The translations under genes were made by a program, and so were the position numbers. A stretch of DNA of 64,000 nt from an uncultured Oscillospiraceae bacterium (GTDB lineage: Bacteria > Bacillota > Clostridia > Oscillospirales > Acutalibacteraceae), in NCBI GenBank assembly GCA_900543215.1, contig UQQR01000005.1, positions 18,769 through 82,768 of the forward strand. Direction: 5' to 3'. This document shows positions 3,902-29,109 of this stretch, piece after piece. Under the pieces are notes generated by a model, which saw only the letters and a list, made by a program, of their open reading frames with translations, made no database searches and was not told the DNA's origin. Numbering within the stretch: the first letter of the stretch is position 1; each line of letters opens with the position of its first letter.

Positions 3902-4933
3902 GTGATTGATTTGTGGGAATATCTTAAAACCGCCGATAAACCGATAGTGCTTTACGGAATGGGCAACGGCGCGGACAAAATCATTTCGGTGCTTGAGTCT
4001 TACGGAATAAAATACAGCGGCGTATTTGCGACAGACGGCTTTGTCCGTGATAAATACTTTCATGGCATGAAGCTTACATCATACGGTAAGCTTAAGGAAA
4101 AGTACGGGAATATGATAGTGCTTGTCTGCTTCGGCAGCGCAAGACCGGAGGTAATAGAAAATATCAAGCGTATCGCCGCGAAGCAAGAGCTGTATGCGCC
4201 CGATGTTCCTGTGTACGGCGGCGGTTTGTTCACAAAAGAGTATGCAAAAAATCACCGTGCGGAGCTTGAATATGTATACAGCCGCCTTGCTGACGAAAAA
4301 TCAAGAGAAACCTTTAAAAATGTTATAGAATACAAGATAACGGGAAAACCTGAATATCTTTTTGTCTGCGAAGCCGATACCGACGAGCCGTATAAAAGCT
4401 TTTTAAGGCTTTCGGGAAACGAGCGTTTTTTCGATTTAGGGGCATATAACGGCGACACGGTATCCGACTTTGTGGGGAGAACCGGCAGTTACGGCAGTAT
4501 CACCGCGGTTGAGCCCGACCCTAAAAATTTTAAAAAGCTTACCCGATTTGCGGAAGAATTACAGGATATACGCCTTATAAATGCCTGTATTTCTGACAAA
4601 AGCGGAGAAAAAAGCTTTTCTGTTCACGGCGGCAGAAATTCGACCGCCGGCATCGGTGAGCTTATCCGCTCCGTTACGGTAGATTCACTGTCCGAAGCCG
4701 CACCGCCCTCATACATTAAAATGGATATTGAGGGCAGCGAGCGTGAAGCGATAAAGGGGGCGGAAAATACAATTAAAGTCTATAAGCCTAAAATGCTTAT
4801 ATCCTGCTATCATCGCACCGAGGATTTGTTTAAGCTTCCTATCGAGGTCGATAAAATAAGAAATGATTATAAGCTTTATTTAAGACATTTCCCGTCAGTT
4901 CCCGCATGGGAAATGAATTATTATTTCATATAA
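3902..4933 (+). CDS. FkbM-family methyltransferase
   Basis: 343 aa. FDLGAYNGDT (SAM-binding Gly-rich loop) and IKMDIEGSE motifs characteristic of FkbM-domain methyltransferases. GTG start inferred. Confidence 0.7.
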   Translation: MIDLWEYLKTADKPIVLYGMGNGADKIISVLESYGIKYSGVFATDGFVRDKYFHGMKLTSYGKLKEKYGNMIVLVCFGSARPEVIENIKRIAAKQELYAPDVPVYGGGLFTKEYAKNHRAELEYVYSRLADEKSRETFKNVIEYKITGKPEYLFVCEADTDEPYKSFLRLSGNERFFDLGAYNGDTVSDFVGRTGSYGSITAVEPDPKNFKKLTRFAEELQDIRLINACISDKSGEKSFSVHGGRNSTAGIGELIRSVTVDSLSEAAPPSYIKMDIEGSEREAIKGAENTIKVYKPKMLISCYHRTEDLFKLPIEVDKIRNDYKLYLRHFPSVPAWEMNYYFI

Positions 4934-13293: not shown

Positions 13294-14033
13294 TGTCAGA
13301 ACCGATTTTACAGGTAAACCACCTTTCCAAAACCTTCGGCAAGCACGAGGTGCTTAGGGACATTGATTTCTCGGTAAACTCAGGAGATGTCACCAGTATA
13401 ATAGGAGCGTCGGGTTCGGGTAAATCCACACTTCTCCGCTGTATAAATCTGCTTGAAACGCCGACCTCGGGCGAAGTGCTGTATCACGGCACGAACATAG
13501 ATAAGCTTAAGGGCGGCGCTAGCGCATACCGCTCCCATGTGGGAATGGTGTTCCAGTCCTTTAACCTTTTTAATAATATGACCGCGCTTAAAAATTGTAT
13601 GATAGGTCAGACAAAGGTTCTGGGCAAATCAAAGGCAGAGGCTAAAAAGGCGGCTTTACACTACCTCGGAAAGGTCGGTATGGCGCCTTACATAAACGCA
13701 AAGCCGTCCCAGCTTTCGGGCGGACAAAAGCAGCGCGTCGCAATAGCCCGCGCGCTTGCTATGAACCCTGAGGTGCTTTTGTTCGACGAGCCTACAAGCG
13801 CGCTCGATCCGCAAATGGTGGGCGAAGTGCTTGAGGTTATGCGCAATCTTGCAAAGGAAGGACTTACTATGATAGTAGTTACCCACGAAATGGCCTTTGC
13901 AAGGGATGTATCCTCAAGGGTAGTCTTTATGGCTGACGGCGTTATCTGCGAAGAGGGTGCGCCGACGGATATATTTGAAAACCCGAAAAACGAAAAAACA
14001 AAAGAATTTTTATCCCGTTTCCTTTCAAAATAA
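13293..14033 (+). CDS. amino-acid ABC transporter ATP-binding protein (GlnQ-like)
   Basis: Walker [10 protein letters not shown], signature [15 protein letters not shown], Walker [16 protein letters not shown] overlap with the permease gene. Confidence 0.9.
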
Positions 14034-14402
14034 GCAAAAACCCACACCGCAAAAGCGTAATGCTCTTAAAGGAGAATTACGCAAACCGAGTAGGAACAAA
14101 CAAAACACCGGCCATCATTACAATGGTCGGTGTCAGTCTGTCGATAAACCCCAAGTTTTATTTTTGCGGCGTTTACGCCGCATTTACGTTTTTTCGCTGA
14201 CACGTGCGGCGAAAAAACACCTTGTAAGCGAAAAACCGCTTATTCAGCGGTTTTTCAAGGGCACTGGGGTGGTATTGGCGGGGATAGAGTACAGTCCGAA
14301 AATCTCTGATTTTCGAGCGAACGGCATTCCCGTCCAAGAGCGTGTCGACTTTTTCGACACGCTCACACCGGCCATCATTACAATGGTCGGTGTTTTTGTG
14401 CA
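14034..14402. repeat. hairpin-dense intergenic block with a duplicated 29-bp palindromic unit
   Basis: ACACCGGCCATCATTACAATGGTCGGTGT occurs at 14105-14133 and 14365-14393. Additional perfect hairpins are GCGGCGTTTACGCCGC (14166), GAAAAACCGCTTATTCAGCGGTTTTTC (14231) and GAGCGTGTCGACTTTTTCGACACGCTC (14338). ORF 13957-14445 across it is low-complexity and judged spurious. Confidence 0.5.
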
Positions 14403-15257
14403 TTATTTGTTTCGCTCACCTCTAAATTCATCAATTAAGGTTTGAAATTCAGTAGCGCTCATCTTTACATACATTTTTTGAACATACTCATAAAGGAATC
14501 TCGAAACTTTTTTATAAGACAATTTACAGCAGCGCATCACCTCGAACCGATGTTTCCGTCTTAACTTTTTGTCATCAGTTTCTTTAAATCCCATGCGCAG
14601 AAAAAGGATTTCATATTTCGAATATACGGCAAAAAAATACGCAACTGGTAAATATAAGGTTGAAAGCACTATGGGTAAAGCCAAACCAACTATGATATCA
14701 ATAAATTGAATACTACCAATTGAGTTGATAGCCGATATTATTGTAAGAGCAAGTATTCCCAAACCCAAAATGCCAACAAGACCATCAATGATTTTTTTTA
14801 CTTTTTCGGTCTTTTTAATTAGTGTTGATTGGAGAATCATAAAAATTACTAAAAGGGGCTGTAGTATCAGTTCGAGTATGATATGGAATGTAAACGTACC
14901 CGTAAAAAATTCCACTAATGCTACAAATTTTAAATTATCAATTATTATATTCCTAAAATAATGCTTTTCCATTTCTCTGCTCGCCGCATTAAAGCAAACA
15001 GGAACTCCAGCAAATAGAGTCCAAAAGATAATATCCTTAATATATACCCAATCCCAAAATGGCAAAAATGTACATACCCAAGTAAAAACTGCAGCAAATG
15101 ATATTACAATCAAAAATGGAACGATAAGTTTTATTTTACACGCAGCCTTAATAACTGGTACCACGATAGATTTTGCTTTTTTGTGTATGAGCAGATAGAT
15201 TAGTAAACCTATTGCATAAACAAAAATTGCAACTTCGCGCGTTGAAAAAAACCACAT
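14403..15257 (-). CDS. multi-pass membrane protein of unknown function (about 7 TM, basic C-terminal tail), AT-rich
   Basis: 284 aa with hydrophobic segments throughout, about 30% GC versus about 50% in flanking host genes. Co-oriented with the upstream gene, separated by 10 bp. Confidence 0.6.
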   Translation of the reverse strand: MWFFSTREVAIFVYAIGLLIYLLIHKKAKSIVVPVIKAACKIKLIVPFLIVISFAAVFTWVCTFLPFWDWVYIKDIIFWTLFAGVPVCFNAASREMEKHYFRNIIIDNLKFVALVEFFTGTFTFHIILELILQPLLVIFMILQSTLIKKTEKVKKIIDGLVGILGLGILALTIISAINSIGSIQFIDIIVGLALPIVLSTLYLPVAYFFAVYSKYEILFLRMGFKETDDKKLRRKHRFEVMRCCKLSYKKVSRFLYEYVQKMYVKMSATEFQTLIDEFRGERNK

Positions 15258-15266
15258 ATTTATCTA

Positions 15267-16160
15267 TCACCCTCTTTTTTTAAGTGCGGATAATACTGCA
15301 TTGTCCGAAACGGCATCTAAATATAGTGACATTGGAAATAAAAGATGTGCCTTATTTGAATATGACGGAAAATTCATTGCAAAATTCACACTACAAGGGA
15401 CACCTACAGAAAGGCTATAATCTTTTGCTGGCAACCCCTTTATGATATCTTGTTCAATTTCTTCAAGTTCTTTTTCATATCTTTGAATTTTTAAATTCTT
15501 AAAATTACTAATGTCATTCTCCAATTTTGATATCCAGTTTTTAAATTCTCTTATAGATGGATCTTGCGACCATTCTTTTGCAATTTCTATCATTTGTTTA
15601 AATGAAGATGATTGTCTATTTATTGAAGAAAAAATAATATTTGGATTGAATGTTAAGTTTGCTTTGCGGATAGAATCATTTAAATCGGCATAATAGTTGA
15701 AAACATCTTTATCAAGTGCATGTATAGCATCATGTCGGTTGTAGTACTGTTTGAATTCGAAATATAAGTCATTTTCTTTTACAAATTTAGCTCTTTCATC
15801 AAAAGGCATATAACTTATATTGCAATGATTGGCAATATTCATATATTCCAATGCTCCCTTTGCAACCAAAGAGGTGTATTTGCTGCAGAATTCTTTATAA
15901 TAATTGAATTCTGCTTTTTGTAAAGAGTCACCAGTATTTTGAAGCGATATAGATTTTAGCAAATCCTTTATATCAATATCATCAATCATAGAATGATTTT
16001 GCCAATATGTCGAAAAGCCATTCTCGAAATAATATATATCATCCCATAACACTAAAATTTCGATAAATGCAATTACTTCAGGTGAAAAGTCTGTGCTTTC
16101 ATCGTTAATACATTGAGTAATTCTCTCTATAGTCCAATTATCAAGCAATATTCCAGTCAT
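15267..16160 (-). CDS. hypothetical cytoplasmic protein (no recognisable domain), AT-rich
   Basis: 297 aa ORF with RBS GAGGTGA upstream of the ATG at 16160. First gene of a two-gene low-GC cassette. Confidence 0.6.
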   Translation of the reverse strand: MTGILLDNWTIERITQCINDESTDFSPEVIAFIEILVLWDDIYYFENGFSTYWQNHSMIDDIDIKDLLKSISLQNTGDSLQKAEFNYYKEFCSKYTSLVAKGALEYMNIANHCNISYMPFDERAKFVKENDLYFEFKQYYNRHDAIHALDKDVFNYYADLNDSIRKANLTFNPNIIFSSINRQSSSFKQMIEIAKEWSQDPSIREFKNWISKLENDISNFKNLKIQRYEKELEEIEQDIIKGLPAKDYSLSVGVPCSVNFAMNFPSYSNKAHLLFPMSLYLDAVSDNAVLSALKKRG

Positions 16161-16590
16161 TTAATCACCTCTTCATATTTTCCTTTATTATATCATAAAA
16201 CTGCTAATGAGCAAAGTAAATTGTCGATTAATGTACGGTTTAATAGCAAAAATCAAACCACCTTAAACAGGCTGCTTTAATAAGAATTTTGTATGTCCCA
16301 TGAAAAAAGCCGATTGACGAGTGCAAAAGTAAGCAGCACAGGATCAAGAAAATCCTGTGCTGTTTGCTTTATCCGGCGTGTCCGAACAACTCAAGGCCAA
16401 TCACCAAATGGAGTGGGTTGCTCGAATGAATAACATCCACAGTAGATCACGGAAATTGTAAATAATGATTTGATACTAATATAAGCGAACAGAGCGGGCG
16501 CTCGGCCTCGCTCTGTTCGAGACTTCTTTAGATATTGTGTAAACCTCCAAGAAGGTATAAAATAGAAATAACAAATCGGAGGTTATAATT

Positions 16591-18113
16591 ATGCCAAGGT
16601 ACAAAGACAGCCCGGAGGTACGGGCAGCAAAACAGGAACGGAGAGAGAAATTGCGGGAGTTGCTCGCGCTGATGGAGGTAGAGGATGTCCGAGACCTGAA
16701 ATCCGTATTTAAGGAAATGGTCGGCGAGGTTCTCGAAAACGGACTTGAAGCGGAGCTTGACGATAAGCTAGGTTAGACAATACAATCAGGATACAATACT
16801 TTTTTGAAGAAACGGCGCCGTTATCGGCATTGTTGCCCTCCGCTCACAATACGTCAGTATTCTTCGGTCAGGCGCCGCGCCGATAAACAGCACCGTTTTT
16901 TTACAAAATCCCTGACCCATAGCGAGAAAATTTTTTTGTTTATGAAGTCGAGGAATGCAGGCATACCGGCGTATTTCAAATGACGAGGCAATATAAACAG
17001 ATAAATTTTCCGCTATGGGAAGCATTGTACCCTGATTGTATTGTCTACACCAAGTACGATTACCGAAATAAAGACACCGACAACAGCCGAAACGGTCATA
17101 GCGTAAAGACTGTTAAAACAAGTGCGGGCGAAGTGGAAATAGCCGTTCCGCGAGACAGGAAATCCGAATTTGAACCGCCGATCATCAGGAAAAACGAAAC
17201 ATCAATAAGCTGGGATATTGAAGAAAAGATCATTTCAATGTACGCCAAAGGTATGACCACCAACGATATTTCGGCACATATTGAGGATATTTACGGAATA
17301 GAGGTATCGGACAGTCTTGTAAGCCGAATAACGGATAAAATACTTCCGGTAGTGAAGGAATGGCAGCAGAGACCGCTTGAAGGCATCTATGCGGTAGTTT
17401 TTATGGACGCAATTCATTACAATGTACGCTGTGAGGGCAGAATTGTAAAGAAAGCCGTATACATAGCAATCGGCATAAATATGGACGGGAAGAAAGATGT
17501 TCTCGGTATGTATGTCGGGGAGAATGAAAGCGCAAGGTATTGGCTTTCAATACTTAACGGGCTGAAAAACAGAGGTGTTGAGGATATTTTAATTGCCTGT
17601 GTCGACGGCCTTACGGGTTTCCCCGAGGCAATATCCGCCGTATATCCGAAAACCGAAGTACAGCAATGTATTATACATTAAATCCGTAACAGCACAAAGT
17701 ATGTTTCATACAAGGATATTAAAGCTCTAATGGCGGATTTAAAGGAGGTTTACGCCGCCGTAGACGAGGAAACGGCGCTTTACGAATTAGAGCAGTTTGC
17801 GGCCAAATGGGACTCAAAATATCCTAAAATTTCGGCTTCATGGAAGGCTCATTGGTTTGAACTTTCAACCTATTTTAAGTATCCGCAATCGGTAAGAACG
17901 CTGATCTACACCACCAATTCCATTGAAAATTTTAACAGGCAGCTGCGGAAGGTTTCAAAAAACAGGTCGGTATTCCCGAACGATGACAGCCTGCTTAAAA
18001 TGCTCTACTTGGCTCAGGTAGACATTACAAGAAAATGGACCGGCAGACGCAGGGACCAAAGTGAGATTCATTCTCAGCTTGAAATATTCTTTGCCGACAG
18101 ACTGCCGGAGTAG
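16591..18113 (+). pseudogene. IS256-family transposase, disrupted by a 270-bp insertion and a CAA>TAA nonsense codon
   Basis: Three ORFs (16591-16776, 16980-17681, 17730-18113) concatenate to a full IS256 Tpase: ...LEAELDDKLG|YTKYDYRNKDTDNSRNGH... and ...QQCIIH*IRNSTKYVSYKD.... The in-frame TAA at 17682-17684 sits where family members have Gln (CIVHQIRNS). Confidence 0.8.
16776..17045. mobile_element. MITE-like 270-bp element with perfect 15-17-bp terminal inverted repeats and a TA target duplication, inserted in the transposase gene
   Basis: TIRs TAGACAATACAATCAGG (16774-16790) and CCTGATTGTATTGTCTA (17031-17047). Removing 16776-17045 and keeping one TA restores the reading frame ...GAT AAG CTA GGT TAC ACC AAG (DKLGYTK). 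Confidence 0.55.
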
Positions 18114-18308
18114 CAGAAATTCACAGCCATGTAAAGGGTAAAATGAACGGCTGCCACGACAGCCGCCCTTGACATGCCTTGCTCTTTCTGCTATTATGCA
18201 AATATGGCGTGCAAGCCGATTTTCGCCTTTCACGCCATCTATCACTTTGCTTTTTTATACCGTAATTTGGACTTTACACATAATTTGAAGAAGAACTAGG
18301 AGGAACCT

Positions 18309-20069
18309 GTGAAATATCTTAAAAATTCTTGTTGGCTTTTAGCCTTACTATGGAAACAAAATAAACCTATTTATTTTTGCTTTATTTCAGAAATACTATT
18401 AAATGTATTGCTGAATACAATAGGAATTGCAATCATTAATTATTTAATACAATATCTTTCCGACAGTGAATATCAATCGGCATTTATAGCGGTGCTGATT
18501 TTATGCTTAAGCACTCTTGTTCTAAATACATTAGTATCATTTCTTCAATACAAAAAACAGGGCTATTTAAACTCGTTTAATGTGTTTATAAAATGTATGC
18601 TGACAGACAGCACACTATCCACAAATTTCGATAACTTTGAAAAATGCGATTTCAGAGAACAGTATCAATTTGCAACAAAATGCGTCACAAGCGGTAATAT
18701 TCAAAATATAATTAATGCAGTGTGCAGCTTTGTTACATATATTCTATCGTTTATTACGCTTTCTTCAATCATTTCATATGTTGTGTGGTGGTTGTGGATT
18801 ATTATTCTTTCAAGCACTATTATTAATATAATTTGTGAATTTCATCGTGCAAACATTAATTTTGAAAGCGAGAAATCTCAAAACAGCGTTGAAATTAAAA
18901 TGCTGTATTCGAGAGATCGACTTACTTGGAAATTATTTGCCAAAGAAGTAAGACTGTTTGATATGTTCTCGTATGTTTCTAATCAAGTAAATAAGTATAT
19001 TAATTTATTGTCAAAATTGCAGGACAAGCGAGCTAATAAAATCTTTAAAGCTTTATGGTGGACATATTTGTTTAACGGTATTTTAATGTTGGCGGTATAT
19101 CTTTATGTTTCGTATAAATGCTATACTGGGGTATTTGAATTATCGCAGTTTTCAACTCTTATTTTATCAATTTTATCTATAAATCAAATGGCTTCCGGTA
19201 TTTCTGGCAGTATTCTTTCGATAAAGGAAAACGGTCTTTACATAAGCACATTTATTGATTTTATCAATAACCATAAGCAAAGTGACGAAACAAGCAGAAT
19301 TGATAAGTGCAGGTTTAATACTATCAGTTTCGAAGATGTTAGCTTTAAATATGACGGTGAAAATAATTTTGCATTAAAAAATATATCTTTGACTCTTTCG
19401 GCGGGTAAAAAGTACGGAATTGTCGGCAAAAACGGCTCAGGTAAGACCACTTTCACCAATTTATTGATGGGACTTTATTCGCCGACCGAGGGTGTTGTAA
19501 AAGTTGACGGAAAAAACATCAGCGAAATAAATCCTAATGAGTATATGAAGTATTTTTCGCCTATTTTTCAAAATTATAATATGTATGCCTATGATGTGAA
19601 AGAAAATATATCTATGAATGCTTGCTATGACATTTCAAGGGTGTGCAATTTGTTAAACAAGGTTAATTTTGCTGATAATGACTGCACTCAGTTTGCTGAT
19701 AAGTTTATAACAAAAGAGTATTCGCCGGACGGAATAGAATTTTCCGGCGGTCAGGAACAAAAAATCGCCATTGCCCGTGCATTATATAAAGATGCACCTA
19801 TCTTTGTTTTGGACGAACCATCTTCTGCTCTTTCTCCTAAAAGTGAGTTGGAGCTTTATGAATTGGTTAATAAGCAGCTAAAGGATAAAACAACATTTTT
19901 CGTTTCACACAGAATGGCAAGCTGTATATTATGCGATGAAATTTTAGTATTCGATAACGGCGAAATTGTGGAAAAAGGCAGTCACAGCGAGCTTATGTCA
20001 AATAACGGATTGTACCACAAGATGTTCACATCGCAAAGGAAGCTGTTTTCAGAGGTGAGAGAATCATGA
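18309..20069 (+). CDS. ABC exporter half-transporter (TMD-NBD fusion), subunit 1
   Basis: 586 aa; 6-TM N-terminal domain, Walker A GKNGSGKTT, signature FSGGQEQKIAIARAL, Walker B IFVLDEPSSAL. GTG start 5 nt after an AGGAGG that overlaps the IS256 right end. About 30% GC. Confidence 0.85.
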   Translation: MKYLKNSCWLLALLWKQNKPIYFCFISEILLNVLLNTIGIAIINYLIQYLSDSEYQSAFIAVLILCLSTLVLNTLVSFLQYKKQGYLNSFNVFIKCMLTDSTLSTNFDNFEKCDFREQYQFATKCVTSGNIQNIINAVCSFVTYILSFITLSSIISYVVWWLWIIILSSTIINIICEFHRANINFESEKSQNSVEIKMLYSRDRLTWKLFAKEVRLFDMFSYVSNQVNKYINLLSKLQDKRANKIFKALWWTYLFNGILMLAVYLYVSYKCYTGVFELSQFSTLILSILSINQMASGISGSILSIKENGLYISTFIDFINNHKQSDETSRIDKCRFNTISFEDVSFKYDGENNFALKNISLTLSAGKKYGIVGKNGSGKTTFTNLLMGLYSPTEGVVKVDGKNISEINPNEYMKYFSPIFQNYNMYAYDVKENISMNACYDISRVCNLLNKVNFADNDCTQFADKFITKEYSPDGIEFSGGQEQKIAIARALYKDAPIFVLDEPSSALSPKSELELYELVNKQLKDKTTFFVSHRMASCILCDEILVFDNGEIVEKGSHSELMSNNGLYHKMFTSQRKLFSEVRES

Positions 20070-21862
20070 AAAAACCTACTTTGTTTAAAAATACTTTTAA
20101 GCTTTTTAAATTGTCCTGTAAGCTTTCGCCAAAAAATGTTTTGTTTACGATACTTTCAACAGTAATCACAACCGCCAAAGATATTTTGGGAGTTTTGGCG
20201 CCCGCTTTTCTGATAGATGTTTTGACCAAAAGCAACAGTTTTTCACTTCCGGCAATGATAATAATCTTTTTTTGTGTGATCATTTCCGTCGCTAATATGA
20301 CTACCAAGTATTTTAGTTTGAAGCTGACTTCGCTCGGATACGCAATGAACAACAGAGGTGCTTTGAAAATCGGTCAAAAAGGTATGAGGCTTGATTATAA
20401 GTGCTGGGATGTTCCCGATTATATGGAGAACAACTTTAGAGCGGTGCAAGGCTCTTGGATCTTTATGGGCATTACAGACGCTTTTTTTGAAAAGCTTCTT
20501 TCGGGCTTAATTTCGTTTGTAACTATCAGCTATATCATAATGCAGGTAGATATATTTGTACTTCTGATTATTCTTTTATTGGTTGTAGTAAGCATTTTTC
20601 TTGACAAAAAATGCGCCAAAAGAATACATAAAATTGATCAGCATGAGGCAGTTGCCACAAAGAAAAAGCATTATGATGAAAGTGTATTGTTCGATATAAA
20701 ATACGGAAAAGAAATTCGTACATATAATGCAAAGGATTTTTTCAAGCAGAAGTTTCAAAAATCCTCAGATGAAGTATTGAATTTTGAAAATAAGAAAAAT
20801 AAGAATTCAATGATATTTTCAATACTTAATTATTTGGTTATCTTTTTGCAGTCTGTAACAGTATATTTGACCGCTGTTTTTAGATACGCTTCGGGCAAAA
20901 TGGCAATAAGCTATTTCTTAGTATATTATGGTGCTGTAATTAAGCTTAAAGATGCACTTTGTGCAATATTTGAATTTTATGCGGATATATCCGAGATTGA
21001 AGAATATTACATTGATATAAATAATTATCTTAATACACAAGAGTCAATGAATACTGGGAAATTAACATTGTTTGAAAATAACAGCTCTTTTTGTATTGAA
21101 TTTAAAAATGTGTATTTTAAATATCCGACTACCGAGAAATATATATTGAAAAATATCAGTTTTAAGTTGACTGGCAATGATAAGCTTTGTATCGTGGGAG
21201 AAAACGGAAGCGGAAAAACAACGCTTATTAAGCTTCTACTAAGGCTATATGATCCGACAAGCGGCGAAATCTTATTAAACGGAAATAATATCAAAGAATA
21301 TGATTATCAGCACTATCTGTCTGTTGTTGCACCTGTTTTTCAGGATTTTCAGCTTCACGCTTTCACTCTGCGTGAAAATATCTCGTTTTTGGATAAACAA
21401 AACGATGAAAAAATATTTGTTCTACTGGAAATGCTGGAAATGAAGGAAAAGGTTGAAAGCTTAGAAGATGGCCTTGACAGTATGGTTACAAAACAATTGG
21501 ACGAAAACGGCACAGATTTTTCAGGCGGCGAAAAACAGAAAATCGCAATGATTAGAGCTGGCTTTAAAGACAGCAGATTAGTTGTTTTAGATGAGCCCAC
21601 TTCAAATATTGATCCGTTAGCTGAAATTAAGTTTTATGAAAAAATCAATGAGGTTTTTAATAATAAGCCGATTGTATTTGTTTCCCACAGAATGACAAGT
21701 GCTAAAATTTCAGATTACATCATCGTAATGGATAACGGAGAAATAATTGAAAGTGGACGCTTTCCAGATTTGTTAAATCAAAACGGTACATTTTCAACAA
21801 TGTATAAAGCACAAGCGAACTTATACAAAGACAAGGGGGATTTGAATGCAAAAACAGTTTAA
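20066..21862 (+). CDS. ABC exporter half-transporter (TMD-NBD fusion), subunit 2
   Basis: 598 aa; GENGSGKTT, FSGGEKQKIAMIRAG, LVVLDEPTSNID. ATGA overlap with subunit 1, so a heterodimeric exporter. No N-terminal C39 peptidase domain. Confidence 0.85.
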   Translation: MKKPTLFKNTFKLFKLSCKLSPKNVLFTILSTVITTAKDILGVLAPAFLIDVLTKSNSFSLPAMIIIFFCVIISVANMTTKYFSLKLTSLGYAMNNRGALKIGQKGMRLDYKCWDVPDYMENNFRAVQGSWIFMGITDAFFEKLLSGLISFVTISYIIMQVDIFVLLIILLLVVVSIFLDKKCAKRIHKIDQHEAVATKKKHYDESVLFDIKYGKEIRTYNAKDFFKQKFQKSSDEVLNFENKKNKNSMIFSILNYLVIFLQSVTVYLTAVFRYASGKMAISYFLVYYGAVIKLKDALCAIFEFYADISEIEEYYIDINNYLNTQESMNTGKLTLFENNSSFCIEFKNVYFKYPTTEKYILKNISFKLTGNDKLCIVGENGSGKTTLIKLLLRLYDPTSGEILLNGNNIKEYDYQHYLSVVAPVFQDFQLHAFTLRENISFLDKQNDEKIFVLLEMLEMKEKVESLEDGLDSMVTKQLDENGTDFSGGEKQKIAMIRAGFKDSRLVVLDEPTSNIDPLAEIKFYEKINEVFNNKPIVFVSHRMTSAKISDYIIVMDNGEIIESGRFPDLLNQNGTFSTMYKAQANLYKDKGDLNAKTV

Positions 21863-22547
21863 GCCCGTTATTGCAATTATTGATTCCGGAATGTCATCTT
21901 TAAATAATTGCTTGAAAAAAGATCTATTTATAAATTATTTAGGAAATGACTTTTGCTTTTGCAATGGACAAACGGATGAAGAGGGTCACGGAACTACTAT
22001 TAACAAAATAATAAGGTGGCATAATGAAGATGCAACTTTGATTAATATAAAATTGTTGCAACAAGACGAAGTCATTATGATTAACGACTTGATTGCTGCA
22101 CTGCAGTATGTTTATGATAATATTGATTGTAATATTATAAATATCAGTATGTCATATAATGTAATAGAGGATTTTTCGCTTAAAAGAAATTTAGAAGATA
22201 TATGTAATCGTTTGGCAAATAAAAACATGATAATTGTTGCTGCGTTTGATAATCTTGGCTCAATTTCATATCCAGCAGCATTCAAATCTGTTATTGGAGT
22301 TACGAGCGGCGAGTATTGCAAAAGAAACAATGATGTTGAATATGTTTATAATGACATTGTCAATATTTGTGGAAAAGGAAACAACCAAATTATCTCAATA
22401 AACAAAGATCGAGTTAATTTAGTTTCAGGCAATAGTTTAGCTTGTGCACATGTTTCTGGGATAATTTCAACAATTCTAAATGAAAACGATAATACCGATT
22501 GTATACTAAAAAAGCTAGAACGAATGGCTATTTTCAAACATGATTGA
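21846..22547 (+). CDS. small intracellular S8 (subtilisin-like) serine peptidase lacking signal peptide and pro-domain; LanP-like leader peptidase candidate
   Basis: 233 aa. Catalytic triad in subtilase order and context: D in IAIIDSG, H in EEGHGTT, S in GNSLACAHVSG. It overlaps the preceding ABC gene by 17 nt. Confidence 0.75.
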   Translation: MQKQFKPVIAIIDSGMSSLNNCLKKDLFINYLGNDFCFCNGQTDEEGHGTTINKIIRWHNEDATLINIKLLQQDEVIMINDLIAALQYVYDNIDCNIINISMSYNVIEDFSLKRNLEDICNRLANKNMIIVAAFDNLGSISYPAAFKSVIGVTSGEYCKRNNDVEYVYNDIVNICGKGNNQIISINKDRVNLVSGNSLACAHVSGIISTILNENDNTDCILKKLERMAIFKHD

Positions 22548-22617
22548 GTCTTCTTTAGATATTGTGTAAACCTCCGAGATGGTATAAAATAGAAATAACA
22601 AATCGGAGGTTAAAATT

Positions 22618-24140
22618 ATGCCAAGGTACAAAGACAGCCCGGAGGTACGGGCAGCAAAACAGGAACGGAGAGAGAAATTGCGGGAGTTGCTCGCGCTGAT
22701 GGAGGTAGAGGATGTCCGAGACCTGAAATCCGTATTTAAGGAAATGGTCGGCGAGGTTCTCGAAAACGGACTTGAAGCGGAGCTTGACGATAAGCTAGGT
22801 TAGACAATACAATCAGGATACAATACTTTTTTGAAGAAACGGCGCCGTTATCGGCATTGTTGCCCTCCGCTCACAATACGTCAGTATTCTTCGGTCAGGC
22901 GCCGCGCCGATAAACAGCACCGTTTTTTTACAAAATCCCTGACCCATAGCGAGAAAATTTTTTTGTTTATGAAGTCGAGGAATGCAGGCATACCGGCGTA
23001 TTTCAAATGACGAGGCAATATAAACAGATAAATTTTCCGCTATGGGAAGCATTGTACCCTGATTGTATTGTCTACACCAAGTACGATTACCGAAATAAAG
23101 ACACCGACAACAGCCGAAACGGTCATAGCGTAAAGACTGTTAAAACAAGTGCGGGCGAAGTGGAAATAGCCGTTCCGCGAGACAGGAAATCCGAATTTGA
23201 ACCGCCGATCATCAGGAAAAACGAAACATCAATAAGCTGGGATATTGAAGAAAAGATCATTTCAATGTACGCCAAAGGTATGACCACCAACGATATTTCG
23301 GCACATATTGAGGATATTTACGGAATAGAGGTATCGGACAGTCTTGTAAGCCGAATAACGGATAAAATACTTCCGGTAGTGAAGGAATGGCAGCAGAGAC
23401 CGCTTGAAGGCATCTATGCGGTAGTTTTTATGGACGCAATTCATTACAATGTACGCTGTGAGGGCAGAATTGTAAAGAAAGCCGTATACATAGCAATCGG
23501 CATAAATATGGACGGGAAGAAAGATGTTCTCGGTATGTATGTCGGGGAGAATGAAAGCGCAAGGTATTGGCTTTCAATACTTAACGGGCTGAAAAACAGA
23601 GGTGTTGAGGATATTTTAATTGCCTGTGTCGACGGCCTTACGGGTTTCCCCGAGGCAATATCCGCCGTATATCCGAAAACCGAAGTACAGCAATGTATTA
23701 TACATTAAATCCGTAACAGCACAAAGTATGTTTCATACAAGGATATTAAAGCTCTAATGGCGGATTTAAAGGAGGTTTACGCCGCCGTAGACGAGGAAAC
23801 GGCGCTTTACGAATTAGAGCAGTTTGCGGCCAAATGGGACTCAAAATATCCTAAAATTTCGGCTTCATGGAAGGCTCATTGGTTTGAACTTTCAACCTAT
23901 TTTAAGTATCCGCAATCGGTAAGAACGCTGATCTACACCACCAATTCCATTGAAAATTTTAACAGGCAGCTGCGGAAGGTTTCAAAAAACAGGTCGGTAT
24001 TCCCGAACGATGACAGCCTGCTTAAAATGCTCTACTTGGCTCAGGTAGACATTACAAGAAAATGGACCGGCAGACGCAGGGACCAAAGTGAGATTCATTC
24101 TCAGCTTGAAATATTCTTTGCCGACAGACTGCCGGAGTAG
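22618..24140 (+). pseudogene. IS256-family transposase, same insertion and same nonsense codon as copy A
   Basis: ORFs 22618-22803, 23007-23708 and 23757-24140 are identical at protein level to those of copy A. Confidence 0.8.
22803..23072. mobile_element. second copy of the 270-bp MITE-like element, at the same position within the IS256 transposase gene
   Basis: TIR TAGACAATACAATCAGG at 22801-22817 and its reverse complement at 23058-23074. Confidence 0.55.
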
Positions 24141-24333
24141 CAGAAATTCACAGCCATGTAAAGGGTAAAATGAACGGCTGCCACGACAGCCGCCCTTGAC
24201 ATGCCTTGCTCTTTCTGCTATTATGCAAATATGGCGTGCAAGCCGATTTTCGCCTTTCACGCCATCTATCACTTTGCTTTTTTATACCGTAATTTGGACT
24301 TTACACATAATTTGAAGAAGAACCATAAAAATA

Positions 24334-24396
24334 CCCACTGGATGCGGCGGTTATTCACGTAACCTTGCCTCAACATCCAGTGGGAATTTTTTATTT
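24334..24396 (+). terminator. stem-loop plus T-tract immediately outside the IS256-B right end
   Basis: CCCACTGGATG-27 nt loop-CATCCAGTGGG followed by AATTTTTTATTTT. Confidence 0.45.
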
Positions 24397-24471
24397 TGGC
24401 TTTGTAGCCGTTTGTTTTATCTAAAACGGCCTACAGGTCAATAAAACTATTTCTGTTCGATTGTACGGCAA

Positions 24472-25089
24472 TCAAATCTCATCATATTCTTGAGAAAGTT
24501 TTCTATCCTTTAAAGTTACTTCAATTTTCGAAAGGATCTTAGCAGGATCTAAATCCTTATGATCGCTTGATAATTGCAGCTTTTCAGGTTTAATAAAATA
24601 CTGCGTTTTACCATCAGTACCTTTATGACCTATATAAATTACCACAATAGTATCCCCATCTTTATCGGTTTTAACTTCTGTTTTAATCCAATAATCAGAC
24701 TCTGGCTTTTCTTTGGATTTAATTTCAGGCACATACCAGTCGTCCAAGCGAATCAATTTAGCATCTTTAAACTCAGGAATATTAAGCATGCGCATACATT
24801 TGCTCTGTAAGCTCTTGAAACTATCTATCGATATTTCTTCATTGCATTTAGGACACCAAAGCGTAGGTGCAATTTTATCGGAAACAAATTCAAGTTCTAT
24901 TTCAGGGTGTTTTGTACAATGAAAGTGGATGCCATGTTGGTTGCAAAAATAATACTTGTGCCAATTTTCTTCGCGTTCAGTAAAGTTTGTGCAATCGCCG
25001 TGGAATAATTCACCACCATCATATAAAGTGCATTTTCTGAAAGAAATATTATCATCCAATCGATATATAACTTTATTTTCACTACTCAT
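24472..25089 (-). CDS. Cys/His-rich (zinc-finger-like) protein of unknown function
   Basis: 205 aa with clusters C20/H30/C33, H44/C49/H52/H55/H57/C58/H61 and a CPKC pair. No recognisable catalytic motif. About 38% GC. Confidence 0.6.
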   Translation of the reverse strand: MSSENKVIYRLDDNISFRKCTLYDGGELFHGDCTNFTEREENWHKYYFCNQHGIHFHCTKHPEIELEFVSDKIAPTLWCPKCNEEISIDSFKSLQSKCMRMLNIPEFKDAKLIRLDDWYVPEIKSKEKPESDYWIKTEVKTDKDGDTIVVIYIGHKGTDGKTQYFIKPEKLQLSSDHKDLDPAKILSKIEVTLKDRKLSQEYDEI

Positions 25090-25107
25090 AAATTACTCTC
25101 CTTGTTT

Positions 25108-26088
25108 TTAATCATTAACCTCAATAATTTTCAATGCTTCTTCCGACGTTAATTCACCGCGCAGATATTTATCTCTTGCCTCAGTGGCAGCATCGCACCA
25201 AACATAAAAATCATCATAGGTGATGCCTTTGGGGGACATATATGTTTTACCTTCATTGCGCTCATAACGGCGGTACATTTTTCGCTTTTCTCTGTCGTAT
25301 GCTTCTACAACTTTATCGGTCAGAACCATCTTTTTGTGTTTAAGACTCGGTGCCAGATCCTTACAAGTCTTATCATCTTTAAGAATGCGGTCACAATACT
25401 TGGTCGCCTTGTTGGTTTTGGGAACAAAATATCTACCGCAACATTCACATCTCACAATTTTGGGTTTTGTAGATAAGAACTGCATTAACAGGAAGATATA
25501 ATAATCAGTCAAATTGCGGAAGAAATACCGTGCAGTCAGTTCTCCGTGGAAAGTCAGTTCTTGCTGTAGCATGATTTGTGAAAGAAAATACTGTGTACCT
25601 TCTTCGTCAAGGGTGTTGCCAGTATAAATGTTGTAAAACGTGTCGTTTACAAATAAATTGAAATCAACAATTGAACAAAGCACCATAGGAATTATGGTTT
25701 TTGTAGTCTCGATACATTCGATAGAGCCGTCAAAGACGGGAACAGAATCCATAATCATAGTCTCGGAGAGCAAAGAAGCAATCGGTGAATTCTCTTCCAA
25801 CTCCTTAATCAAACTCTCAGTAGTCGAAGTGAGCCGTTCAAAATTTTTCAAATCTTCTTTGTTGGGTTTATGCTTTCCCTCGGTTTTAATGTTATTTGCA
25901 AGTTCTTGGATTAAATCCACAATCCTTGAATACGGCCAAAAATTCAATTCGGAGAACTCTATAATCTCATCCTTAATCGTGGTGACAGGTAGTTCCTGCT
26001 CACCCGATTCGGTGATGAGATTTCTTTTTATTTGACCATCTTTTTCTAAGGTTACATACAGTCCAATTTGCTGGGGTATTATCTGCAT
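25108..26088 (-). CDS. hypothetical protein with a C-terminal CxCCGRYF...KYCDR...C zinc-ribbon-like segment
   Basis: 326 aa. Acidic N-terminal half, a hydrophobic core, and a basic C-terminal tail with a C4-type cluster (RCECCGRYFVPKTNKATKYCDRILKDDKTC). Co-directional with the 205-aa gene, 18 bp apart. Confidence 0.6.
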   Translation of the reverse strand: MQIIPQQIGLYVTLEKDGQIKRNLITESGEQELPVTTIKDEIIEFSELNFWPYSRIVDLIQELANNIKTEGKHKPNKEDLKNFERLTSTTESLIKELEENSPIASLLSETMIMDSVPVFDGSIECIETTKTIIPMVLCSIVDFNLFVNDTFYNIYTGNTLDEEGTQYFLSQIMLQQELTFHGELTARYFFRNLTDYYIFLLMQFLSTKPKIVRCECCGRYFVPKTNKATKYCDRILKDDKTCKDLAPSLKHKKMVLTDKVVEAYDREKRKMYRRYERNEGKTYMSPKGITYDDFYVWCDAATEARDKYLRGELTSEEALKIIEVND

Positions 26089-26655
26089 AAATTCACCGCC
26101 TTTTGTGTAAAAGTGAACTTTGTATATTTTTCTTCAAAACACCTTCTCACCCCGAAGGTGTTGTTTTCATATTAGAATTATATCACAGACAGGCAAAAAA
26201 GAAAAGTCTGACCTTACAATTGAATGACCTGCCGATAAGATATGCGGAGGCGGCCTTTGGCGATGACAGCAGTTTGCGGGAACTGTGCTGGGAGAGAAAG
26301 ATGCACTGTGGTGTGTTCCGAAAGGACTCGGCGAGCGAAGGATCGTCTTCAACACTACACGGTCAAGAAAAGAGCGTAGGAACAACGTCGGGGAGAACAG
26401 GCTTAAATCTGCGGTGAAGCGAGGAAGGAATATGAACTTTCTCTTATAGGCAACAGTCGCCATCCGCAGTTGTGGGTGCAGCACTCCTTCGAGTTGGTGT
26501 GCTCACAGCGGGAACAAAAAAGTGTTCCTGCACAATATGAATATTGCTCCCACCTTTTAGGTGAGCGCAATAAAAATAAACTCATGAAAGGTGGGATGTA
26601 TATGATTGTTTCAATTGAAACCCCAATGCAAAAATCTACAGAAAGGAAAGAAAAA

Positions 26656-27624
26656 ATGACAACCGAAAAAACACTATCCCTTGTTCGAATGTCGGATGTG
26701 CAGCTTCAAGAAGTCAGATGGCTATGGAAACCGTATATCCCATTCGGAAAACTGACCATCATCCAAGGTGACCCCGGCGAAGGTAAAACGACCTTTGCTC
26801 TACGGCTCGCCGCCGCTTGTTCTTCGGGCGTGGCTTTGCCCGGCATGGAAATTGCAGAACCCTTCAATGTGATTTATCAAACCGCCGAAGACGGACTCGG
26901 CGACACCATCAAGCCAAGGCTTATTGAAGCAGGTGCCGATGAAAGCAGAGTGCTGAATATCTGCGAGGACACCGATCCTCTTTCTCTGTCGGATGAAAGA
27001 ATCGAACAGGCAATCAGGCAGACCGATGCCAAGCTGATGATCCTCGACCCGATTCAAGGTTATATCGGTGAGCGCATTGATATTAATCGTGCCAACGAAA
27101 TCCGCACCATTCTTAAAAAGGTTGCCGCCGTTGCCGAGCATACAGGATGCGCCATTATTATGGTCGGTCACCTTAATAAAGCTCAAGGCTCAAGCAGTGC
27201 CTACCGAGGACTTGGTTCAATAGACTTCCGTGCAGCCGCAAGAAGTGTTCTGTTAGTGGGTCGGCTTCGCAAAGAACCGAATGTCCGAGTTATTGTTCAC
27301 GATAAATCTTCGCTGACACCCGAAGGTAAATCCATCGCCTTCAACCTTGGTAATGAGGATGGTTTTTATTGGCTCGACGGTTACAGTGAAATATCCGCCG
27401 AAGAACTGCTCTGTGGTTTCTCTGCCGAAACCAAAACAGCGGTAGCAGAAGAACTGATCCGCAGTATGTTGGCTGACGGCAAAGAAGTTACGGCAGAGGA
27501 AATATTCAGAACCGCCGCCAACAAAAACATTTCCCAGCGCACCGTTAATGAAGCCAAGAAAAACATTGACGGCATCAAAAGCCGAAAGGTTGGCAAAGGC
27601 TGGGCGTGGTCGATACCCGAATAA
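26656..27624 (+). CDS. AAA_25/RecA-fold ATPase typical of integrative mobilizable elements (primase/helicase-loader-like)
   Basis: Start placed at MTTEKT. WLWKPYIPFGKLTIIQGDPGEGKT (Walker A), LMILDPIQGY (Walker B-like), and a C-terminal wHTH-like tail. Confidence 0.7.
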   Translation: MTTEKTLSLVRMSDVQLQEVRWLWKPYIPFGKLTIIQGDPGEGKTTFALRLAAACSSGVALPGMEIAEPFNVIYQTAEDGLGDTIKPRLIEAGADESRVLNICEDTDPLSLSDERIEQAIRQTDAKLMILDPIQGYIGERIDINRANEIRTILKKVAAVAEHTGCAIIMVGHLNKAQGSSSAYRGLGSIDFRAAARSVLLVGRLRKEPNVRVIVHDKSSLTPEGKSIAFNLGNEDGFYWLDGYSEISAEELLCGFSAETKTAVAEELIRSMLADGKEVTAEEIFRTAANKNISQRTVNEAKKNIDGIKSRKVGKGWAWSIPE

Positions 27625-27859: not shown

Positions 27860-28168
27860 ATGACTAAAACCGAAATATTAAAGTTCAGGGTAACACCTGA
27901 AGAAAAAGAAATCATCACCCACAAGGCACTATCCTCATACAGACTCGTCAGTCAGTATCTGCGTGACTGTGCCTTGGAAAAACAAATCACCGTGATAAAC
28001 GGTGCGGATAATGTTGCCGATGAGCTCAGGCGCATCGGTAATAATGTAAATCAAATCGCCCGTGCGGTAAACGCTGGCTTCGTTACCGAAACAAACCTCA
28101 CGGAAACAAGAGAGGAGTTGAAAGCGATATGGCAATCGTTAAATTCGTTACTTCGGACTGCCCGATGA
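27860..28168 (+). CDS. mobC: mobilization protein MobC (relaxosome accessory)
   Basis: 102 aa with the MobC family signature RIGNNVNQIARAVN. It overlaps the relaxase start by 40 nt. Confidence 0.75.
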   Translation: MTKTEILKFRVTPEEKEIITHKALSSYRLVSQYLRDCALEKQITVINGADNVADELRRIGNNVNQIARAVNAGFVTETNLTETREELKAIWQSLNSLLRTAR

Positions 28169-29109
28169 ATAATATCTTTCCCTATGTTATGAGGAAAGAG
28201 GCAACCGAGCAAAGACTCATAAGCGGCATTGAGTGTTCACCCAATACGGCGTTGGAAGAATTCCGTTATGTAAAACAGAAATACGGTAAAGAGGACGGCA
28301 GAACCTACTATCATATCGTGCAGTCCTTCGCTCCCGATGATGAACTGACATCCGAAACCGCACATGAAATCGGGTTAAAGTTTGCAGAACACTTTCCCGG
28401 TTATCAGATCTTGGTGGCGACCCATTACAACACCGGTCATATTCACAATCATCTTATTATGAACTCTGTCAACTACCAAAACGGTAAAAAGTTTCACCAA
28501 ACCCGCGATGAACTTTTGCAGGTGAAGGCATACTCCAACAAGCTCTGTCAGGAGTATGGGTTGAGCATTACCGAAGAAAAGTGCAGCTACGGCAGATGGC
28601 CGGAATGGAAAAAGCGACTCCGCAGTTTTGCTCTGTATGCAATAAGTAATTCCGATACAAAAGAAGAATTTATTGCGTATATGCGCGAGCACGGATACAA
28701 CGTCAAGTGGGAAGATAAATACAAATATATCACCTTCACCACACCCGACAATCACGTGTGCCGCGACAAGAGTTTGTTTGATGAGCGTCTGCTCAAAGAC
28801 AACCTCGAAGTATACTTTGCGCTTGGCGGTGCGAGCAGCGAACTATATGATGACTATAACGATTATAAAACTCCTGCGCATACACCCGAAGCAAGCATGA
28901 CAGTTACAACGGGACTCATAAGTTTACTCGGCGATCTGCTTTCAACAGCACCGCCCGAGGACGATTATGAGCCGCATCCGGCAAAAGAACTAAGCACCGC
29001 CGCGAAGCTTAGACTTGAAAAAATCCTCGGCAAGAAAATTTCACCTATGGCATACGCTTGCTATTCTACTCAGGAAGATGAAGGACAAGCGATGGGGTTT
29101 TATATGTAA
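28129..29109 (+). CDS. relaxase/mobilization nuclease (PF03432-type)
   Basis: MAIVKFV... N-terminus. The catalytic-Tyr region is YYHIVQSF, and the 3-His metal motif is HYNTGHIHNHLIMNSV. Confidence 0.8.
   Translation: MAIVKFVTSDCPMNNIFPYVMRKEATEQRLISGIECSPNTALEEFRYVKQKYGKEDGRTYYHIVQSFAPDDELTSETAHEIGLKFAEHFPGYQILVATHYNTGHIHNHLIMNSVNYQNGKKFHQTRDELLQVKAYSNKLCQEYGLSITEEKCSYGRWPEWKKRLRSFALYAISNSDTKEEFIAYMREHGYNVKWEDKYKYITFTTPDNHVCRDKSLFDERLLKDNLEVYFALGGASSELYDDYNDYKTPAHTPEASMTVTTGLISLLGDLLSTAPPEDDYEPHPAKELSTAAKLRLEKILGKKISPMAYACYSTQEDEGQAMGFYM

Follow-up and report, generated by a model that had tools for sequence, protein, structure and literature searches.

A family of miniature inverted-repeat elements in uncultured human-gut Clostridia and its insertion into an IS256-family transposase gene

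The DNA analysed here, a stretch of 64,000 nucleotides from an uncultured Oscillospiraceae bacterium (contig UQQR01000005.1, positions 18,769 to 82,768; referred to below as the window), contains an insertion sequence (IS) of the IS256 family whose transposase gene is interrupted by a 270-bp segment with inverted ends. It is very probable that this segment is a non-autonomous, cut-and-paste miniature inverted-repeat transposable element (MITE), and that the resulting IS256::MITE chimera had a single origin, spread in trans, recombined with intact IS copies and decayed. In all of its structural features the segment is a bacterial MITE, including its small size, with a core of 270 bp that contains no transposase gene. 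A MITE had been proposed in an earlier reading of the window (the original prediction), and that interpretation was supported both by empty sites in intact IS copies and by many further copies of the element at unrelated sites.

Perfect 17-bp terminal inverted repeats (TIRs) had been reported at the ends of the element, and were found as described: the 17 nt at 16774-16790 (TAGACAATACAATCAGG) recur, exactly reverse-complemented, at 17031-17047. The repeat arms are in fact longer than 17 nt, extending to 28 nt with 93% complementarity (16774-16801 / 17020-17047), and the approximately 28-nt end of the MITE reads TAGACAATACAATCAGGGTACAATGCTT. Two ACAATAC-type motifs lie within the left TIR, which was near-invariant across 37 copies of the element. 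When up to three mismatches were allowed, the 17-mer occurred four times in the window, compared to 0.06 occurrences expected from shuffled sequences; the two hits beyond the element's own ends belong to another copy of it, at 22801-23074. At the left junction the transposase sequence GAT AAG CTA GGT TA is followed by GACAATACAATCAGG, and at the right junction CCTGATTGTATTGTC is followed by TA C ACC AAG TAC GAT.

The insertion breaks the transposase gene after codon 61 and causes a frameshift. Removal of 272 nt (the 270-bp core and one TA) joins DDKLG to YTKYDYR in a frame of 416 codons. The reconstructed 416-amino-acid (aa) protein matched the Pfam profile Transposase_mut (PF00872) with an E value of 8.8e-116 (387 bits, cutoff 21) over 373 of the 379 profile positions, and the frame was 97-98% identical to the intact 416-aa proteins P0002 and P0003. 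The host element belongs to the IS256 family on the basis of this PF00872 transposase, its terminal inverted repeats, which are imperfect in the window copy (GAGACTTCTTTAGATATTGTGTAAAC / GTTCTTCTTCAAATTATGTGTAAAG), and an 8-bp target duplication at a homologue, L243. Public proteins related to this transposase included P0001 (686 aa), in which part of a related IS256-family transposase appears to be duplicated in tandem, with residues 1-260 repeated ahead of a full transposase copy. Shorter IS256 homologues of 374-392 aa were considered as possible MITE-initiated open reading frames (ORFs) and rejected, as they are ordinary start-site variants.

The expectation that excision would restore an uninterrupted frame was borne out in part. 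The 416-codon join was as predicted, but the restored frame contains an in-frame TAA, located between CIIH and IRNS, at 17679-17681 and again at 23706-23708 in a second copy of the chimeric IS, whose MITE (copy B) had been missed in the original prediction. Intact relatives have CAA (Q) at this codon. The TAA was common to both window copies and was not present in the other MITE-bearing lineages examined, which indicates that the duplication within the window postdates the TAA mutation. The two MITE copies, aligned together with their flanks over 334 bases, were 100% identical, and the two IS copies were 99.8% identical, with all four differences located within the first ~70 bp. Both IS copies in the window are dead as a result of the MITE interruption, the premature TAA and the replacement of a conserved DWG by DQS (at 24081-24089 in copy B).

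The DNA of 11 intact IS copies contained the empty site GGTTACACC with a single TA. In eight of these copies, which were at a nucleotide distance of 2-5%, the site read GCT[A/C]GGTTACACCAAG with one TA, and the other three, which represent a variant that is ~20% different, likewise had a single TA. The insert therefore consists of 270 bp and one duplicated TA. Whether homologous IS256 transposases natively contain the segment had been named beforehand as one of two points on which the MITE reading could fail, and none of the 11 intact copies carried it; the description of a mobile element nested within a mobile element was correct.

The TA target duplication was confirmed by these empty sites and by the restoration of host ORFs at other loci, since a 187-codon flavin-reductase-like ORF (L098) and a 417-codon ORF (L047) were each restored only when exactly one TA was kept. 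All TIR-bounded copies were flanked by TA, and no direct repeat longer than TA was found at any of 57 copies. A target logo derived from 52 sites had G at position -3 on both sides (53%, compared to a background of 21%) within AT-rich flanks, a preference of roughly G-N-N-TA-N-N-C to which the IS256 site, GGT TA CAC, conforms. Most insertions were intergenic, in either orientation. A REP/REPIN or an IS200/IS605-derived palindromic element was rejected, given the TA duplication, the true 28-bp TIRs and flanks that share no more than the TA and a weak G at -3.

The expectation that copies exist elsewhere was amply confirmed, as more than 100 were found at unrelated sites. A scan of 185,579 species-representative genomes with the 17-mer gave at least 118 loci. 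About a dozen of these were single hits in unrelated phyla, in line with the ~70 matches that a 17-mer would be expected to make by chance in 2 x 596 Gb; the remainder came from about 10 related uncultured gut metagenome-assembled genomes (MAGs) of the Ruminococcaceae/'Eubacteriales', one of which holds at least 19 loci. Among the MITE-rich lineages are the species that CAKSDI01, URFG01/UMGS949, URPQ01/UMGS1222 and CADBQU01/RUG14213 represent. A scan of metagenomes gave at least 119 loci, mostly from the human gut and with the same size classes. At least 57 TIR-bounded copies, at 52 or more distinct sites, were present in the genome loci, and about 60 others were present among the metagenome loci listed. 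The phage, plasmid and viral-contig collections contained no real copy, the four viral hits being chance matches of 17-19 nt. The housekeeping stretches of the window were 72-79% identical to loci of MITE-rich MAGs, which indicates that the window host is related to the lineages that carry the family in abundance.

The 57 or more TIR-bounded genome copies comprised 36 copies of 266-274 bp, the majority of exactly 274 bp, 11 copies of 63 bp, singles or pairs at 68, 80, 141, 147, 160, 176 and 199 bp, and two copies of 276 and 282 bp that have the same ends and an interior that is 65-70% identical. Many truncated solo ends were also present in the genome loci. The 37 distinct full-length copies (266-274 bp) had a mean column identity of 94%. 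The short forms (63-199 bp) are internal-deletion derivatives that keep the ends; in the family consensus, the right arm of the second internal palindrome holds a TIR-like sequence that corresponds to the left end of the 63-bp mini-elements, which span from this sequence to the right end. Copies at different loci differed by as little as 0-2 nt, and one intergenic copy (L223/L151) was 2 nt from an IS-borne copy (L160/L245); such near-identity suggests that a transposase has recently been active. The TIR string was not found in the literature searched, and the family is apparently undescribed so far in human-gut Clostridia, in which, to our knowledge, MITEs have been little studied.

Several loci of the family had unusual arrangements. 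A metagenome contig (L236:882-1155) joins the left flank of an intergenic MITE to the 3' part of an IS256 element across the MITE, and in another (L198:8667-8940) the same left flank, from the intergenic site of L223 and L151, is joined to a third sequence; these joins represent either MITE-mediated homologous recombination or repeat assembly chimeras. In L163, two 277-bp MITEs of a sister sub-family (3128-3404 and 4593-4868) are in direct orientation, separated by 1.2 kb that holds membrane-protein genes and the 3' terminus of a TetR-like gene, and could be a MITE-bounded composite.

The interior had been described as containing imperfect palindromes and no ORF. The palindromes were confirmed, with the 274-nt MITE folding on either strand into a very stable structure (minimum free energy (MFE) of -110 and -116 kcal/mol, z about -11) in which the TIRs form a terminal stem and two long imperfect internal palindromes form hairpins. 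In the 37 copies 98.3% of the predicted pairs were kept, and no shuffle equalled the observed covariation score, although related sequences exceed shuffles even in the absence of structure. Two-sided changes were found in 5 of 81 pairs and mostly trace to a single inherited event (UA to CG, seen in 14 copies). The TIR stem and the two-hairpin plan were also kept in sub-families with interiors that are only 65-70% identical. Selection on this architecture probably acts on the DNA itself, for example through binding sites for a transposase or host factor. At the hairpin tips (16846-16862 and 16956-16972) there is a dyad, ATAC-N4-6-GTAT, that echoes the ACAATAC motifs of the TIRs; it was conserved in the equivalent positions of L078, L037 and L163 and may be a protein-binding site.

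With respect to ORFs, stop-free stretches of 59-86 codons do exist in the interior, without any coding signal: the ratio of non-synonymous to synonymous differences per site (pN/pS), measured against the consensus, was 0.71-1.12 across all six frames. The 86-codon frame on the minus strand (16786-17043) covers nearly the whole element and was retained in 31 of 37 copies; it was rejected as coding sequence, with a pN/pS of 0.88. A search of Rfam at E <= 10 gave two chance snoRNA hits and no family match. A self-splicing intron or IStron was rejected, since neither a group I nor a group II ribozyme core was detected in that search. A promoter scan gave one hybrid -35/-10 match at the left junction (16757-16786), which is no more than expected by chance.

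The chimera extends well beyond the window. Public assemblies contain the exact 61-aa N-terminal product in 299 recorded blocks. Ten of the places with this ORF were fetched, and although their gene neighbourhoods are of several different kinds, the MITE occupies the same TA and has the same orientation in all ten. In L243 an 8-bp duplication, ATAAATTT, flanks the whole 1777-bp IS::MITE, which indicates that the chimera transposed as a unit. The lineages carry different lesions (Table 1); in L251 a pair of indels keeps open a 377-codon ORF that runs from an ATG within the MITE to the normal stop. The codons GAC CAA AGT (DQS) were present in all seven full-length chimeras, compared to GAT TGG GGC (DWG) in all eight intact copies and the outgroup. 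DWG was conserved across all homologues retrieved, and the DQS marker is a 5-nt cluster located ~1 kb from the MITE. Because DQS was shared by all seven chimeras, the chimera probably arose once; a single origin, spread with help in trans and subsequent decay are the probable history of this lineage.

The divergence of the chimeras was less straightforward. The lineages differed at a pS of 0.12-0.16 with a pN/pS of 0.07-0.16, and the same was true when they were compared with intact copies, while their IS-borne MITEs differed at 3-12 of 274 positions. The chimeras were not grouped by distances or in a neighbour-joining tree, the backbone of which was unresolved, and L246 was 2.2% from the intact copy L255 compared to 3.7-4.0% from other chimeras. 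A total of 47 variants were shared between chimeras and intact copies. The ratio of non-synonymous to synonymous private variants was 28/34 in the chimeras and 16/32 in the intact copies, and the higher value for the chimeras is consistent with relaxed constraint. A long-dead chimera that decays in isolation was rejected on the basis of the pN/pS of about 0.1, and was kept only in combination with recombination.

The explanation favoured here would involve the following events. A DDE transposase acting in trans would bind the TIRs and make a 2-bp staggered cut at a TA. The MITE inserted at the TA in the IS256 transposase gene, duplicating the TA and splitting the gene after codon 61. The chimera would have arisen once and, without a transposase of its own, would have spread by means of the transposase of intact sister copies, by which it could be mobilised in trans because its IS ends are intact. 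Frequent recombination with intact copies would import synonymous variation that had already been purified, and would be unable to homogenise the MITE because intact copies lack it. The chimeras would slowly decay, with different inactivating mutations gained in each lineage.

Several points weigh against this explanation. The mobilising enzyme and its family are putative: there was no autonomous element with matching TIRs in the window (Pfam, 20 ORFs), the ~1.8 Mb of fetched loci held no transposase between TIRs spaced 0.4-4 kb apart (up to four mismatches), and there was no parent element in the phage, plasmid and viral-contig collections. The search pattern itself included TA, which in part guarantees a constant TA at the end searched for; the empty-site and ORF-restoration tests are free of this bias. 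Finally, a pN/pS of about 0.1 at a pS of 0.12-0.16 is unexpected for a long-dead gene; recombination with intact copies, which was inferred, would explain the low value.

The original prediction had called for a check for an IS630-family transposase with matching TIRs, and neither the window and the ~1.8 Mb of fetched sequence nor the collections of phages and plasmids contained one. An IS630-type transposase was also not found in the gene tables of L243-L252. Nothing relevant was obtained from a self-BLAST for inverted repeats 0.7-3.5 kb apart in the fetched loci or from a search for intra-MAG repeats of at least 400 bp, and a scan of metagenomes gave no case in which the 28-nt TIR runs into a base that differs from the MITE. 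Three candidate parents were rejected: L163 (1741 bp) consists of two separate 277-bp MITEs that flank ordinary genes, and L153 and L168 contain no transposase. MAG assemblies generally lack IS copies, and only the matches listed were surveyed; the absence of a parent is therefore weak evidence. The IS256 transposase was rejected as the mobiliser of the MITE, as the ends differ and its target duplication is 8 bp rather than 2 bp. Strict TA duplication is the signature of the IS630/Tc1-mariner superfamily and points to it. The proposed resemblance to these elements thus held with respect to the TA duplication, on which the assignment is based, and an enzyme of the IS630/Tc1-mariner type would be the most likely candidate for the mobiliser.

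It is possible, if somewhat doubtful, that the MITE is real and its parent belongs to another DDE family (the IS427 or ISL2 groups of IS5, or IS30) or encodes an undescribed transposase, an orphan-MITE situation such as that of the Correia elements of Neisseria. No IS630-type gene or matching autonomous element was found, the element begins with GA after the TA, which is typical of IS5-family ends in ISfinder, and the target logo has A/T, not C, at -1, which differs from the CTAG reported for IS630 itself. On the other hand, the duplication was strictly TA at every tested site, the duplications of IS30 and the IS5 groups are not limited to TA, and RUP of Streptococcus pneumoniae with IS630-Spn1 provides a precedent (PMC2229807). 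Further removed is the suggestion that the segment is a native part of the coding region, or an inverted repeat that arose by chance. It has nothing to recommend it beyond the position inside a gene, and its probability is negligible given the 11 intact homologues without the segment, a length of 272 nt that is not a multiple of three, the occurrence of the TIR four times compared to 0.06 expected, and the more than 100 copies elsewhere. A functional structured RNA or an IS regulatory module (one that resembles an intron or a riboswitch-like attenuator, or supplies a new start codon) would be in keeping with the stability of both strands (z about -11), the 98.3% of pairs kept in 37 copies with covariation above every shuffle, the two-hairpin plan with ATAC-N4-6-GTAT tips that persists at 65-70% identity, and an in-frame ATG/TTG in the MITE (the ATG at 16980 in the window) that opens onto the 3' transposase part, in an ORF that is preserved by the indel pair of L251. 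Such a role is nevertheless most improbable: there was no Rfam match, compensatory change was limited to 5 of 81 pairs and mostly to one inherited event, most copies are intergenic and in either orientation, nearly all IS-borne copies have downstream stops or frameshifts, the MITE ATG is lost in L246 and L252 and lacks a Shine-Dalgarno sequence, and palindromic interiors are normal for bacterial MITEs (PMC2229807).

With respect to the chimera, the shared TA could be an insertion hot spot at which the MITE hit different IS256 variants repeatedly and independently. This would fit the absence of a supported clade, with some chimeras closer to intact copies (L246 and L255), the pN/pS of about 0.1 between chimeras, as if each had been functional until recently, and the 1-4% divergence of the IS-borne MITEs compared to 12-16% at synonymous sites; the site also fits the G-N-N-TA-N-N-C preference, and RUP has been reported to prefer IS elements (PMC2229807). 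Repeated insertion was demoted to an unlikely alternative by the DQS cluster, which was present in seven of seven MITE-bearing copies, in none of eight intact copies and not in the outgroup. Furthermore, all of the insertions have the same orientation, the 47 shared polymorphisms and recombination can give the same distance pattern, and the chimera moves as a unit, as judged from the 8-bp duplication of L243 and the two identical window copies. The chimera might also be a selected unit in which an N-terminally truncated transposase, started within the MITE, would inhibit intact IS256 copies in trans, the Inh protein of Tn5 being an analogue of such a trans-dominant truncated transposase. The MITE would remove the first 61 codons and provide the in-frame ATG/TTG starts for such a protein. 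Hints of this were the low pN/pS among chimeras (about 0.1-0.2), the open frame of L246 and the compensating indels of L251. Against it, most copies have stops or frameshifts, the ATG is lost in L246 and L252 and a ribosome-binding site is absent, and the selection signal is accounted for by recombination with intact copies; the reading is very unlikely. In an exact look-up the 233-aa MITE-initiated ORF of the window was not on record.

Two directly oriented IS256::MITE copies are thus present in the window, at 16519-24324, where they bracket ABC-exporter genes (18309-20069 and 20066-21862) and a 233-aa S8-peptidase-like ORF (21846-22547; bracketed block 18309-22547). The arrangement is composite-transposon-like; no target duplication shared among the four flanks of the window IS copies was seen. 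A strong terminator-like hairpin of 13 pairs (16486-16519) stops exactly at the start of IS copy A, which appears to have inserted at the terminator foot, and the 230 bp upstream (16290-16520) have a higher GC content than the neighbouring genes. The copies lie within a low-GC island at ~14000-26500 (30-39% GC, compared to 43-53% elsewhere in the window), which also contains ORFs without a Pfam match (14403-16160 and 24472-25089) and a DUF6076 protein. An AAA_25 ATPase gene (26470-27624) and a MobA/VirD2 relaxase gene (28129-29109) adjoin the island at normal GC, and the island and relaxase region together look like an integrated mobilisable element.

Table 1. Coordinates of the MITE, its host IS copies and the lesions of the chimera lineages.
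Feature	Position	Strand	Basis or remark
MITE copy A with flanking TA dinucleotides	16774..17047	+	inverted-repeat search; single TA in empty sites
MITE copy A core, 270 bp	16776-17045		between TA 16774-16775 and TA 17046-17047
Left TIR, 28 nt including TA, first 17 nt perfect	16774..16801	+	93% complementary pair
Right TIR	17020..17047	-	inverted-repeat search
Imperfect palindrome 1, GC-rich, tip CAATACGTCAGTATT, then T7 on + strand	16805..16903		MFE fold, z = -11.0
Imperfect palindrome 2, tip CATACCGGCGTAT	16916..17019		inverted repeats, MFE fold, family alignment
MITE copy B, 100% identical to copy A, same position in second IS	22801..23074	+	
IS256-family element copy A, ~1507 bp native plus 272-bp insertion	16519..18297	+	ends set from 8-bp duplication at L243 homologue
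IS256-family element copy B, same MITE, same TAA	22546..24324	+	
Transposase gene 5' part, 61 codons	16591..16775	+	terminates at TAG formed by target TA and first G of MITE
Transposase gene 3' part, 355 codons	17048..18113	+	premature TAA 17679-17681; GAC CAA AGT (DQS, not DWG) 18054-18062
Lesion, window copies			TAA at codon 273
Lesion, L245 / L247 / L248			2-bp deletion
Lesion, L252			stop at codon 114
Lesion, L243			1-bp deletion near 3' end
Lesion, L251	L251:4390-5523		-1 inside MITE, +1 in 3' part, 45 nt beyond MITE end
Lesion, L246			none; 416-codon frame fully open apart from MITE

The statement that such elements are rarely documented in Clostridia overstated the novelty, given the precedent of RUP in S. 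pneumoniae (PMC2229807). RUP elements duplicate TA, are mostly intergenic and probably depend on IS630-Spn1 for their mobilisation; insertions with inactivation of the transposase gene have been reported for more than six IS families (PMC2229807). They are the closest analogue of the gut element, with which they share small size, a non-coding sequence, TIRs, TA duplication, high copy number, mostly intergenic location, a Firmicute host and insertion into IS elements with inactivation of transposase genes. RUP is shorter (107 bp, with TIRs of 9 bp), and it has a candidate parent whose ends resemble its own. The gut element, in contrast, measures 270 bp, its TIRs are 28 bp long and its interior holds two long palindromes; no parent was found, and the IS::MITE chimera is itself a widespread lineage. 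The Correia elements have TA termini, TIRs, size variants and no known transposase, and are occasionally inserted in transposase genes (PMC2229807). The likeness of the gut element to Correia/NEMIS of Neisseria extends to TIRs of ~24-26 bp, TA termini with TA duplication, size variants that differ by internal blocks, a stable stem-loop, the lack of a known transposase and occasional transposase-gene insertion. Correia/NEMIS elements differ in phylum, sequence and size (107/155 bp), and carry IHF sites and promoter elements, whereas the gut MITE has one chance-level, hybrid promoter-like match at its junction. The Stowaway/Tc1-mariner MITEs of eukaryotes also duplicate TA, have short TIRs, can fold back on themselves and include deletion derivatives with common ends; unlike the gut element, they are linked to known mariner-like transposases, and they belong to another domain of life.

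The nested MITE-in-IS arrangement is real, and is an ordinary kind of nested mobile DNA that leaves the understanding of how such elements work unchanged. These results add a well-delimited MITE family to uncultured human-gut Clostridia, with clean filled and empty sites and a graded deletion series that can be used to seek the transposase. The annotation of such genomes is affected, since the split transposase is called as ORFs of 61 aa and roughly 130-377 aa, as are repeat-induced assembly breaks in gut metagenomes. The chimera illustrates that a miniature element can turn an autonomous IS into a non-autonomous element that nevertheless spreads. The main value of the analysis lies in a widespread MITE family of gut Clostridia and in an IS256::MITE chimera, probably of single origin, that is still spreading.

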